From a virus (Duplodnaviria > Heunggongvirae > Uroviricota > Caudoviricetes): DNA of 4,628 nucleotides. The notes below the pieces were generated by a model that was given only the letters and a program-made list of their open reading frames with translations, ran no database searches and was not told the DNA's origin. The stretch lies in IMG/VR virus record IMGVR_UViG_2724679172_000017; one strand, 5' to 3'. The translations under genes and the position numbers were made by a program. This document shows, piece by piece, positions 2,015-4,628 of the stretch (positions within the stretch are counted from its first letter, which is position 1; every line of letters begins with the position of its first letter).

Positions 2015-2025
2015 GTGGAGTGAAT

Positions 2026-4047
2026 ATGGCAGTACAGATTTCAGGTGTGCTGAAAGACGGTGCAGGAAAACCGATACAGAACTGCACCATTCAGCTCAAA
2101 GCAAAACGTAACAGCACCACAGTTGTGGTGAACACGGTGGCCTCAGAAAATCCGGATGAAGCCGGACGTTACAGCATGGATGTTGAGTATGGCCAGTACA
2201 GCGTCGCCCTGCTGGTTGAAGGTTTTCCGCCTTCACATGCCGGGACCATCACCGTGTATGAGGATTCTAAGCCGGGGACATTGAATGATTTTCTGGGCGC
2301 TGCAACAGAAGATGATGTTTGTCCGGAGGCACTGTATCGTTTTGAAAAGATGGTGGAAGAGGCGGCACGCAACGCTGAAGCCGCCTCTCAGAGCGCAGCG
2401 GCAGCAAAGAAATCAGAAACAGCAGCGGCATCGTCCAGGAACGCGGCGAAAACATCAGAGACGAATGCAGGTAACAGCGCGAAAGCGGCAGCTTCTTCAA
2501 AAACAGCCGCACAAAACGCAGCAACAGCGGCAGAACGTTCAGAGACAAATGCCCGTGCGTCAGAAGAAGCCTCCGCAGACAGTGAAGAGGCTTCCCGCCG
2601 TAATGCAGAGTCAGCCGCTGAAAATGCCGGAGTCGCCACCACAAAAGCGCGGGAGGCCGCAGCAGACGCAACAAAGGCCGGGCAGAAAAAGGATGAGGCT
2701 CTGTCGGCAGCGACACGAGCTGAAAAGGCGGCAGACCGCGCAGAAGCCGCAGCGGAAGTGACTGCAGAGCCCTGTGCGAATATAGTGCCGCCGCTGCCTG
2801 ATGTGTGGATACCGTTTAACGATTCACTGGATATGATTACGGGTTTTTCGCCATCTTATAAAAAGATAGTTATTGGTGACGATGAAATAACAATGCCAGG
2901 CGACAAGATTGTTAAGTTTAAACGTGCTTCAACAGCAACGTATATTAATAAGTCCGGCCAACTCAAGCTTGCTGAAGTTGACGAACCGCGATTTGAGCGC
3001 GATGGCTTATTGATTGAAGGACAGAGGACAAATTATCTGAGGAACTCAAATAAACCAGACTCATGGACTGTTCATTCCGCACTGAATAAAACATTTGGCA
3101 CTGATAAACAGGGGTTCAATTATGCCACGGTGACACCCACGGAAAGTATAGTGGGAACAACAGGTGGCTATACTGTGCATGGTGTGGTTGCAGCAGACAG
3201 ATTCCCGCTGGCAAGTGGTGAATGTTTCACTTTTTCGTGCCGGGTTAAAGGCGCTAAAGCACGATGCAGGTTAAGAGTTTCAGTTATTATTGGTGGAACA
3301 GATACCTTCTCTGCTGACTCTTATCTTGATCTGGATACCCGGATCGCAACAGTAAGCGGTAATACATCCCTTATAACAGCCAAAGCTGAACAACAGGGCG
3401 AGTGGACCTACTATGAGGCCACTTATACAGCTAATACGGACATTGATACCGTTAACTGTGCTTTTTATATGACAAATAAAATAAGTAATGAGCCATTCTA
3501 TGATGACTCAACATTAACCATGACGACGCCGCAAATTGAACTGGGCAATACGGCATCGTCATTTATTGTAACTACAATGCCAACAACACGCGCAAGTGAT
3601 GTAGTTACTATCCCATCGCAGAATAACCTGTCAACACGGCCTTTTACGGTATTGTGCGAAGTAAGCAGGAACTGGAGTACACCGCCCAATGTTGCGCCAA
3701 GGATATTTGATGTTGGAGGGCACAGTATTGATGATAATTATTTATCGCTGGGGTTTGTTGCAACAGGAAAGATAAGCGCCAACGTAGGAATGGTTCAGCC
3801 ACAAATTGCCTCAGATGGAGAAAGGTTCATTGTGGGTGTGAGAGCTAAATCTGATTTATCAGTAAATGCAATATGCAATGGTAATTATACAACAAACCTT
3901 AATGGTAAAATATTTGGAGTTACAGCAACATCGTACCGGTTTGGTGGGCAGACCGCAGCAGGAACGCGTCATTTGTTTGGACACATCAGAAATTTCAGAG
4001 TCTGGTTTAAAGAATTAAATGACAGGCAAATCAAGGAGGCAGTATGA
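2026..4047 (+). CDS. stf: Side tail fibre protein (lambda Stf-like N-terminus; alanine-rich repeat shaft; divergent low-GC C-terminal receptor-binding domain with a LamG/ConA-like jelly-roll signature)
   Basis: The N-terminus MAVQISGVLKDGAGKPIQNCTIQLKAKRNSTTVVVNTVASENPDEAGRYSMDVEYGQYSVALLVEGFPPSHAGTITVYEDSKPGTLNDFL is near-identical to my recollection of lambda Stf (MAVKISGVLKDGTGKPVQNCTIQLKAKRNSTTVVVNTV...). The ATG at 2026 is preferred over the ORF-track GTG at 2020 because GGAG (2017-2020) sits 5 nt upstream and lambda Stf starts MAV. The C-terminus ...GTRHLFGHIRNFRVWFKELNDRQIKEAV resembles the terminal strand pattern of LamG-like domains. Stop TGA at 4045-4047. Confidence 0.85.
   Translation: MAVQISGVLKDGAGKPIQNCTIQLKAKRNSTTVVVNTVASENPDEAGRYSMDVEYGQYSVALLVEGFPPSHAGTITVYEDSKPGTLNDFLGAATEDDVCPEALYRFEKMVEEAARNAEAASQSAAAAKKSETAAASSRNAAKTSETNAGNSAKAAASSKTAAQNAATAAERSETNARASEEASADSEEASRRNAESAAENAGVATTKAREAAADATKAGQKKDEALSAATRAEKAADRAEAAAEVTAEPCANIVPPLPDVWIPFNDSLDMITGFSPSYKKIVIGDDEITMPGDKIVKFKRASTATYINKSGQLKLAEVDEPRFERDGLLIEGQRTNYLRNSNKPDSWTVHSALNKTFGTDKQGFNYATVTPTESIVGTTGGYTVHGVVAADRFPLASGECFTFSCRVKGAKARCRLRVSVIIGGTDTFSADSYLDLDTRIATVSGNTSLITAKAEQQGEWTYYEATYTANTDIDTVNCAFYMTNKISNEPFYDDSTLTMTTPQIELGNTASSFIVTTMPTTRASDVVTIPSQNNLSTRPFTVLCEVSRNWSTPPNVAPRIFDVGGHSIDDNYLSLGFVATGKISANVGMVQPQIASDGERFIVGVRAKSDLSVNAICNGNYTTNLNGKIFGVTATSYRFGGQTAAGTRHLFGHIRNFRVWFKELNDRQIKEAV
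2362..2760 (+). repeat. Alanine-rich low-complexity imperfect repeats in the stf shaft region (AAK(K/T)SET.A / ERSETNA motifs)
   Basis: Protein motifs KKSETAAASS, AKTSETNAGNS and ERSETNARAS recur. At DNA level tcagagacGaatgc (~2454) and tcagagacAaatgc (~2539) repeat. The region is open in several frames on both strands, typical of GC-rich GCN-codon repeats. Confidence 0.6.
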
Positions 4048-4322
4048 AAGATTTAACTTTGAAATTTCCTGGTAACAGAGAGTTTAAATCCTTCCTGTCA
4101 TCTCTTGACTGGGAGGAGGATGAAGACCTCCAGAATAAACTGTTAGTCGATGAAATTGGTTTCACCTACACAGAAACAGGGGTAACAGAAGAGGGAGAAC
4201 CTGTCTGTGTCCGGAATGACGGTTATTTTGTCAACATTCGCATTCTTGATGACTTGTTTGATGTTTCTGTATTCTCTGATTATGTCGTGGAGCTGGAAAC
4301 ACCGCTTCGGGAATGGAGCTGA
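4044..4322 (+). CDS. Hypothetical small acidic protein (92 aa), translationally coupled to stf; possible tail-fibre chaperone or accessory protein, function unknown
   Basis: Its ATG (4044-4046) overlaps the stf TGA (4045-4047) as ATGA. A strong SD AGGAGG (4034-4039) lies 4 nt upstream. GC is low (~41% by my count), like the stf C-terminal domain. By my count it has ~22 Asp/Glu against ~8 Lys/Arg. I recognise no family. Confidence 0.6.
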   Translation: MKDLTLKFPGNREFKSFLSSLDWEEDEDLQNKLLVDEIGFTYTETGVTEEGEPVCVRNDGYFVNIRILDDLFDVSVFSDYVVELETPLREWS

Positions 4323-4334
4323 AAGGAGGAAATA

Positions 4335-4628
4335 ATGGATATAAGCCCCTTACTTCATGCACTTTGTGCTGTGGCTGCGCAGATACTGGTTGGTCTTTTT
4401 ACCGGAAACTGGGCTTACGGAGCGATAGCCGGTTGTACGTTCTTCATTGCGCGTGAACATACCCAGGCAGAATATCGCTGGATTGAAATGTTCGGGCATG
4501 GCAAGCGAATGAATATGCCGTGGTGGGGCGGTTTTGATCCGCGAGCTTGGGATGTGGCAAGCCTGATGGATTTTGCTGTGCCGGTGGTGGCGTGTCTGCT
4601 GGTCTGGCTGTTGGTTAATCGTGGGTGA
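4335..4628 (+). CDS. Hypothetical small membrane protein (97 aa, 2-3 predicted transmembrane helices); moron-like gene downstream of the tail-fibre module
   Basis: SD AGGAGG (4324-4329) lies 5 nt before the ATG at 4335. Hydrophobic segments are LLHALCAVAAQILVGLFTG, AYGAIAGCTFFIA and ASLMDFAVPVVACLLVWLLV, around a polar core carrying a WWGGFDPRAWD motif. GC is ~52%, higher than the preceding gene. There is no lipobox or classical signal peptide. Stop TGA at 4626-4628. Confidence 0.6.
   Translation: MDISPLLHALCAVAAQILVGLFTGNWAYGAIAGCTFFIAREHTQAEYRWIEMFGHGKRMNMPWWGGFDPRAWDVASLMDFAVPVVACLLVWLLVNRG

Follow-up and report, generated by a model that had tools for sequence, protein, structure and literature searches.

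A small acidic protein encoded behind a LamG-ended side tail fibre in a phage-21-like prophage is a candidate fibre assembly partner

The gene orf92 lies directly behind the side tail fibre gene stf in a 4,628-nucleotide stretch of viral DNA (Caudoviricetes; IMG/VR record IMGVR_UViG_2724679172_000017), which as a whole is referred to here as the window, and it encodes an acidic protein of 92 amino acids (aa). An earlier note on this DNA, made from the letters alone, had read orf92 as an unusual chaperone or an accessory protein. A functional tie to the fibre was borne out: on unrelated phage backbones, all homologues examined lie at the stop of a fibre gene whose distal module is of the same kind. 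The reading we favour, and to which we give about an even chance, is that orf92 is a dedicated, co-translated assembly partner (a chaperone or transient cap) of a fibre module composed of a neck, a domain like the head spike of a gene transfer agent (GTA) and a LamG domain. We favour it because of the two-way synteny, the mobility of the pair across backbones and the co-expression of both genes from the late operon; because the divergence of the protein tracks the fibre framework and its acidity is conserved opposite a basic fibre C-terminus; because its predicted structure is compact, with a hairpin and a docking-like tail; and because chaperone genes behind fibre genes have a precedent in other phages (PMC10579305). 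The features on which the argument depends are as follows.

2020 to 4047, plus strand: stf, the side tail fibre gene, an intact open reading frame (ORF) of 675 aa upstream of orf92 (PF08400, phrog_1419)
2782 to 4044, plus strand: the distal module of stf, aa 255-675, with neck, GTA-head-spike-like domain and LamG domain (alignment A5, 14 diverse members)
2911 to 3642, plus strand: domain like the RcGTA head spike fibre (Rcc01080) and like a carbohydrate-binding module (CBM), forming the variable receptor-binding core (profile A5, NF048003)
3595 to 4035, plus strand: C-terminal Laminin_G_3 (concanavalin A-like) domain, ending in RHLFGHIRNFRVWFKELNDRQIKEAV (PF13385)
4033 to 4039, plus strand: Shine-Dalgarno (SD) sequence AAGGAGG for orf92, within the last stf codons (read from the sequence)
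4044 to 4047, plus strand: ATGA overlap between the orf92 start and the stf stop, TGA at 4045-4047 (read from the sequence)
4044 to 4322, plus strand: orf92, small acidic protein of 92 aa with an ATG start (ORF list; phrog_1361; WP_000654172.1)

The linkage between the two genes holds in both search directions. Starting from the small protein, all 94 loci with an orf92 homologue have a fibre gene immediately upstream that ends in ...H[IVL]RN[FL]R[IVL]W..L.D.Q..., and a homologue of the stf distal module was found directly upstream in 87/87 loci of an earlier subset. Starting from the fibre, a scan of species-representative genomes (one genome per species) with profile A5 returned 13 loci, 12 of them genuine, and in 12/12 a small-family ORF lies no more than 40 nt from the fibre end (hidden Markov model E-values 5e-43 to 1.6e-5). 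The genuine loci belong to Escherichia ruysiae (2), Escherichia sp., Silvania, Buttiauxella, Leclercia (3), Aeromonas rivipollensis (3) and one contig labelled Collinsella; the thirteenth, from Sulfurimonas, was rejected as its match consists of 24 residues only. The earlier note had left open whether homologues always follow this fibre domain, and they do: the orf92 homologue is linked to the module universally, across unrelated phage backbones, and the two form an ancient, obligate pair.

Among lambdoid phages, the pair is carried by the stf genes of the window, phage 21 and phage Tritos. In Tritos the small protein is 52% and the fibre 41% identical to those of the window, and an extra fibre gene is inserted before orf97, the gene that follows the pair in the window. 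A 55% identical homologue (P0031) is found in a siphovirus prophage in the interval from the head-tail connector genes to the tail tube gene. There its start shares one base with the stop of a 704-aa protein whose last 430 aa are 45% identical to stf 255-675; aligned with the stf module, the C-terminus of this 704-aa fibre shows 45% identity over 440 aa, while the N-termini of the two fibres are unrelated. Distant homologues (31-43% identity) were located by exact-protein look-ups. Their settings include an ENA contig with a 734-aa gene upstream, a Logan contig with the same fibre-then-small-gene arrangement, a 39-kb contig on which a 1711-aa fibre adjoins genes for a T7-type single-stranded DNA-binding protein and a PD-(D/E)XK protein, J-adjacent fibres with other N-termini, and apparent lytic-phage contigs that encode a dUTPase and a 5'-3' exonuclease and have an S74 fibre gene farther down. 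In Mu-like myovirus prophages of Leclercia, a 498-aa Laminin_G_3 protein and a 94-aa homologue are inserted with the DNA circulation gene on one side and the baseplate hub gene on the other (L099-L101, 3505-5285), and a separate Caudo_TAP gene, which serves the prophages' own fibre, is present farther downstream, beside baseplate/fibre-related genes.

Two of these settings deserve a separate remark. Fibre-like genes are not usually found where these Mu-like prophages have theirs, between DNA circulation and baseplate hub genes. In the E. coli prophages L003-L007 (3887-7369), the 704-aa fibre and its small partner lie between the head-tail connector and tail tube genes, and a second fibre with a Peptidase_S74 domain follows the pair. 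Because its module is homologous to the GTA head spike fibre, the LamG-ended 704-aa fibre of these prophages could be a head or neck appendage and not one of the tail.

orf92 is a real gene under purifying selection and goes beyond a chance ORF. It matches phrog_1361, a PHROGs family with no assigned function, end to end (E 1.6e-39; residues 1-91 aligned to positions 1-91 of the 92 in the profile), and pairwise ratios of nonsynonymous to synonymous substitutions (dN/dS) among close variants, leaving out those of L053 and L073, are 0.22-0.41. Cluster representatives number 45 at 90% identity and 47 at 50% identity, extending down to ~33% identity. The profile search returned 99 proteins, all of 46-190 aa and all unnamed or annotated as hypothetical, and no Pfam domains or fusions to other domains were found among them. 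Two longer proteins, P0050 (2744 aa) and P0082 (731 aa), align to orf92 in 10-11 short stretches via D/E/G-rich 'DWGDG/DWDGD' repeats, and were judged to be compositional matches, not homologues or domain fusions.

The family is widespread. When a query spanning the stf end, orf92 and orf97 was compared with 5426 complete E. coli genomes, at least 1114 (~20%) matched it over 80% of its length or more. Many E. coli chromosomes, as well as several lambdoid phage genomes, match the 829-bp segment 3800-4628 at 100% identity. Homologues reach Leclercia, Buttiauxella, Silvania and Aeromonas, and related structures occur in uncultured environmental phages. At one locus (L050) the orf92-type gene is ended by a stop after 10 codons (5001-5033); at another (L037, 401-5001) no more of the fibre than its last 43 codons is left in frame before an intact small gene, with the stf N-terminus ~3.7 kb upstream. 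Both are cases of decay in some prophages.

The start of orf92 overlaps the stf stop as ATGA behind a strong SD sequence, just as the earlier note had described: AAGGAGG (4033-4039) is separated from the ATG (4044-4046) by the 4-nt spacer cagt, and the stf stop TGA occupies 4045-4047. Of the 94 loci, 82 have a stop/start overlap of 4 nt and 10 have one of 1 nt (TAATG), whereas a gap of 10 nt separates the genes in the remaining 2; SD-like purine runs are retained at the homologous loci. A search of the plus strand between 3600 and 4628 found no sigma-70-like promoter or terminator. Because orf92 has neither promoter nor terminator of its own, its SD lies inside stf and its start overlaps the stf stop, we infer that it is expressed from the late tail operon and translationally coupled to stf.

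The overlap could in principle have another meaning. orf92 overlaps the end of stf and is read in the -1 frame with respect to it, as would be expected if the two were joined into one protein by programmed -1 frameshifting, like lambda G/GT. However, a TGA in the orf92 frame at 4020-4022 leaves just 21 nt for such an event, and no X XXY YYZ slippery heptamer occurs there, by which a fusion is effectively refuted at the level of the sequence. Furthermore, orf92 has a strong SD and an ATG, homologues with the 1-nt overlap or the 10-nt gap have an SD of their own, the N-terminus MKDLxLKF is conserved from residue 1, and no fused long proteins appeared in the orf92 profile search. We consider the chance that frameshifting plays a part here to be negligible.

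Residues 3-133 of stf, the partner fibre, match the prophage tail fibre N-terminal domain PF08400 (E 2.8e-67), the protein matches the phrog_1419 tail protein, and its counterpart in phage 21 is labelled side tail fiber. The distal module can be read as a conserved neck (PLPDVWIPFNDS...EPRFE..GLLIEGQRTN), a variable jelly roll of carbohydrate-binding type, and a LamG jelly roll whose basic C-terminal strand is conserved. Against PDB sequences, profile A5 matched 6tb9, 'Head spike fiber Rcc01080', at module positions 44-287 (E 1.2e-30), and the GTA-spike-like region of stf matches NCBIfam NF048003 GTA_spike_fiber (E 3.5e-18) and, weakly, CBM_4_9. PF13385 was detected in 13/14 module members (best E 3.8e-10); in the stf of the window it spans module aa 272-418 with an E-value of 4.2e-4, under the gathering score. 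The LamG domain ends in the motif RHLFGHxRNxRIW, a C-terminal motif kept in all partner fibres, and this conserved C-terminus is rich in R, H and K.

In the RefSeq/PGAP annotation stf is broken into two pseudogene fragments marked 'incomplete', one for the N-terminal domain and one for the head-spike-fibre part, and the Ala-rich coiled region between them is skipped. The same split annotation is seen for L002 4227-6248. It looks like an annotation artefact and not a genuine disruption of the gene.

Comparison with phage 21 separates the parts of the module that are exchanged from those that are not. The window is ~95% identical to phage 21 up to 3023 and ~94% identical from 3936 on, the latter part comprising the last 37 stf codons, orf92 and orf97. 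The only strongly divergent block, at ~3024-3935, lies inside stf (~aa 336-639) and is a clean example of replacement of the receptor-binding core by recombination within the conserved neck and C-terminal strands. The orf92 protein of phage 21 is 93% identical to that of the window, whereas the spike core is 28% and the LamG core 31% identical. The converse is seen in L096, whose LamG core is 80% identical to that of the window and whose small protein is 32% identical. Recombination exchanges the receptor-binding cores and leaves orf92 untouched.

These comparisons also bear on the base composition. The earlier note had observed that orf92 shares its low GC content with the C-terminal part of stf, which is correct (0.419 for orf92 and 0.426 for the distal half of stf, 2801-4043, vs 0.556 for the proximal part of stf and 0.527 for the next gene). 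Its conclusion that orf92 was acquired together with this particular swapped C-terminal domain of stf was not supported as worded, the divergent block being internal to stf. Since a 93% identical orf92 is paired with cores of 28-31% identity, and L096 presents the opposite case, the low GC content is a property of the whole module family and no sign of a single recent joint transfer.

A similar picture emerged from pairwise distances over 53 distinct pairs of small protein and fibre, which are phylogenetically non-independent, such that the correlations are indicative only. The distance between small proteins correlated with that of the neck (Spearman r 0.85) and of the last 40 fibre aa (0.82, a value confounded by genetic linkage to orf92), and less closely with that of the GTA-spike-like core (0.62) and the LamG core (0.66). 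The mean distance between small proteins was 0.33, compared with 0.50 between cores; necks differed by 0.21 and the last 40 aa by 0.29. These values are indicative of a small protein that evolves like the conserved framework of the module, unlike the receptor-binding cores or a specificity determinant.

This pattern matters for the possibility that orf92 is a structural accessory subunit kept in the virion. As a distal cap or a co-adhesin in the manner of Mu Tfa or T4-type gp38, it would aid receptor binding or fibre stability and not folding alone. Strict adjacency and coupling imply near-stoichiometric synthesis, the fold of orf92 is compact and confidently predicted, and some fibre chaperones stay attached (PMC10579305), all of which would suit such a subunit. 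However, orf92 is far more conserved than the cores it accompanies, both in the phage 21 comparison and in mean distance (0.33 vs 0.50), and alignments A1 and A2 contain no hypervariable orf92 segments beyond the loop at aa 9-16, which is not the pattern of a specificity adhesin. Virion proteomics on orf92 was not found in the literature. On balance, we regard a permanent place in the virion as fairly unlikely.

AlphaFold2 predicted orf92, from a 22-sequence alignment, as a compact alpha/beta domain with a mean predicted local distance difference test (pLDDT) score of 90.3. The model consists of strand beta1 (residues 2-8), helices at 11-20 and 27-32, a long hairpin (33-47/53-67) with 15 residues per strand, a short helix at 74-77, and an extended tail. 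The tail carries the conserved C-terminal P-x-R-x-W motif at lower pLDDT and, in the model, would fit a docking element. Three stretches show little or no variation in the family alignments: the N-terminal strand MKDLxLKF, the strand GYFVNxR and the PxRxW tail at the end. The net charge of roughly -14 given by the earlier note is exact (D10 + E12 vs K4 + R4; isoelectric point 4.05), and acidity is a family trait, with net charges of -7 to -17 across 21 homologues.

If orf92 is an assembly partner, it would be made from the late tail-operon transcript, with ribosomes that terminate on stf reinitiating at the overlapping ATG. The protein would thereby appear beside the fresh fibre C-terminus in roughly matching amounts. 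It may then bind the conserved framework of the module, the likely contact being the basic C-terminal LamG strands (RHLFGHIRNFRVW...) and/or the neck, and aid folding, trimerisation or solubility. In this way it would serve the fibre as an intermolecular chaperone and might linger for a while as a cap. Physical binding, the binding site and chaperone activity are steps that we only infer.

Several observations weigh against this explanation. Adjacency and coupling fit a stoichiometric structural subunit or an inhibitor equally well. An inhibitor would cover the LamG/CBM surface while still inside the producing cell, perhaps as a mimic of an acidic polysaccharide ligand, and would block premature binding to envelope or debris until its release on or after assembly; we hold such a masking role to be improbable. 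In addition, searches of Pfam, PHROGs, NCBIfam, PDB and BFVD revealed no known chaperone that resembles orf92 in sequence or fold, and a literature search by accession, phage 21 record and related terms yielded no publication or proteomic data on the protein. The structure of the partner is of no help, as an AlphaFold2 prediction of stf 255-675 from the single sequence reached a pLDDT of 34 and was unusable. Fine-scale co-variation of orf92 with the receptor-binding cores was absent from the 53 pairs and from L096, and a strictly cognate lock-and-key relation is therefore excluded. The non-independence of the pairs and the linkage of the last 40 fibre aa to orf92, mentioned above, count on the same side.

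The window is the tail end of the late operon (tail genes) of a phage-21-like prophage, because its gene order is common to strain 4/1-1 and phage 21. In strain 4/1-1 the order is gpJ, the tail fibre (with split annotation), two hypothetical genes and then sitDCBA on the opposite strand, and the locus adjoins a truncated dehydrogenase pseudogene of the isocitrate/isopropylmalate family. Phage 21 has the matching order of J, side tail fibre, the hypothetical gene CPT_21_23 (the counterpart of orf92, which RefSeq likewise lists as hypothetical protein WP_000654172.1), the membrane protein gene CPT_21_24, and sitDCBA.

Gene J of the window contains a 41-bp tandem duplication (732-813), with copies at 732-772 and 773-813 that differ by one mismatch. 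The duplication shifts the frame, and J is read as two ORFs, 40-804 and 858-1967. The extra copy is absent from phage 21 and from the eight best-matching complete E. coli genomes among the matches listed, where the matches over the duplication fall into two pieces spanning 360 nt instead of 401 nt. Identity to strain 4/1-1 is 99.7% to the right of the duplication junction vs 95% to its left. J looks to be inactivated in the window, or else the duplication marks a recombination or assembly junction.

The gene downstream of orf92 is a neighbour of the pair and stands outside the module:

4335 to 4628, plus strand: orf97, small membrane protein gene, 97 aa (phrog_1443)

It has its own SD (AAGGAGG, 4323-4329), and its phage 21 counterpart is annotated with two transmembrane domains. 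orf97 follows the stf-orf92 pair in lambdoid backbones only and is absent after the pair in non-lambdoid contexts, and a homologue in the Uetakevirus phiv142-3 lies directly after a different tail fibre gene (Orf6) without an orf92 homologue. A link between orf92 and the serum-resistance study of phiv142-3 orf6/orf10 was rejected, given that this phage has a homologue of orf97 only, not of orf92. orf97 may be a membrane moron associated with the fibre region, for example one that acts in exclusion or surface modification.

Such cargo raises the question of whether orf92 is itself a host-directed moron or anti-defence factor, be it a DNA mimic or some other small acidic inhibitor, that hitch-hikes beside the fibre gene. 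The earlier note had raised this idea on the grounds of charge. The protein is indeed small with a net charge of -14, and the prophage region carries other cargo in sitABCD and orf97. However, orf92 is obligately linked to one fibre module in unrelated phages in both search directions, it belongs to the late tail operon with no promoter or terminator of its own, and its start codon shares bases with the stop codon of the fibre gene; orf97, the cargo gene next to it, does not behave in this way and is also found without orf92. PADLOC-DB defence models matched orf92 with 0 families at E <=1, and no Ocr, ArdA or defence-related match was found in PADLOC or in Pfam at E <=1 (anti-restriction families unchecked in this copy), where the single match was LUD_dom at a non-significant E of 0.1. 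The predicted fold matched no solved protein, DNA mimics included. The idea was therefore not upheld, and we consider an anti-defence role very improbable.

orf92 is catalogued yet uncharacterised, and as far as could be found there is no earlier description of its family, of the fold predicted for it or of its strict pairing with a LamG-ended module across siphoviruses and myoviruses. The finding is incremental and unsurprising in principle, because a helper gene behind a fibre gene is expected, but it is useful for annotation and fibre engineering. If orf92 is the assembly partner of LamG-ended fibres, it would add a new family beside the Tfa, gp57A, gp38 and S74-type chaperones, the transplant unit for host-range engineering would be the distal module plus the small gene, and a simple annotation rule would allow thousands of hypothetical proteins to be named. 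A broader proposal, to which we assign slightly less than an even chance, is that orf92 founds an unrecognised fibre chaperone/cap family with a new fold and forms, together with the LamG-ended module, a self-sufficient two-gene receptor-binding cassette for siphovirus and myovirus tails, possibly also heads, in Enterobacteriaceae and Aeromonas. A more daring version would have orf92 as an acidic receptor mimic that masks the lectin domains until release.

Among known systems, the Caudo_TAP proteins (lambda Tfa, P2 G and Mu U/U'; PF02413) are similar in that their gene lies immediately downstream of a fibre gene in the late operon, as does orf92 with its ATGA overlap. They are presumed to aid distal fibre folding, may stay bound, and travel with the distal fibre in recombination. 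Lambda Tfa, at 194 aa, is about twice the size of orf92. orf92 differs from this group in its half size, its lack of sequence similarity (no PF02413 match in Pfam at E <=1) and the nature of the partner tip, which is built of LamG and GTA-spike-like jelly rolls. The earlier note's view that orf92 is unlike the Tfa-type chaperones was confirmed, with no known chaperone family matched in Pfam, PHROGs, NCBIfam or PDB sequences; NCBIfam and PDB gave no sequence match of any kind, and the fold matches in BFVD are uncharacterised proteins of uncultured phages only.

T4 gp57A is likewise a small, acidic, non-enzymatic helper of fibre folding and acts as a general trimerisation chaperone. It is an all-helical coiled coil that is not known to be encoded beside its clients and serves several fibres; in contrast, orf92 is predicted to be an alpha/beta protein and is tied to one fibre module. 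The DNA mimics T7 Ocr and ArdA are comparable in small size and strong net negative charge, but orf92 is translationally coupled, fibre-linked and placed in the late operon, not early-expressed, and shares no sequence or fold similarity with them. RcGTA Rcc01080 (PDB 6tb9) is homologous to the central domain of the partner fibre, a likeness that bears on the fibre and not on orf92; its PDB chain has 325 aa and the match ends at residue 281, leaving no room for a LamG domain of ~150 aa.

The 'chaperone caps' gp27 of Alteromonas phage V22 and gp9 of phage A5 are small proteins encoded right after the fibre gene (PMC10579305). They consist of helices and a protruding beta-hairpin, and fibre-chaperone pairs of this type are common to morphologically distinct phages; more generally, phage fibre genes are commonly trailed by a cognate chaperone that may remain as a cap (PMC10579305). 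Like these caps and the Peptidase_S74 domains of T5 pb1 and K1F endosialidase, the orf92 model has helices and a long hairpin. orf92 shows neither a PF13884 match nor the helical trimerising core with a beta-hairpin tentacle found in 3GW6/4UW8. In its position, coupling and portability, it resembles a fibre partner of the Tfa or V22 gp27 type.

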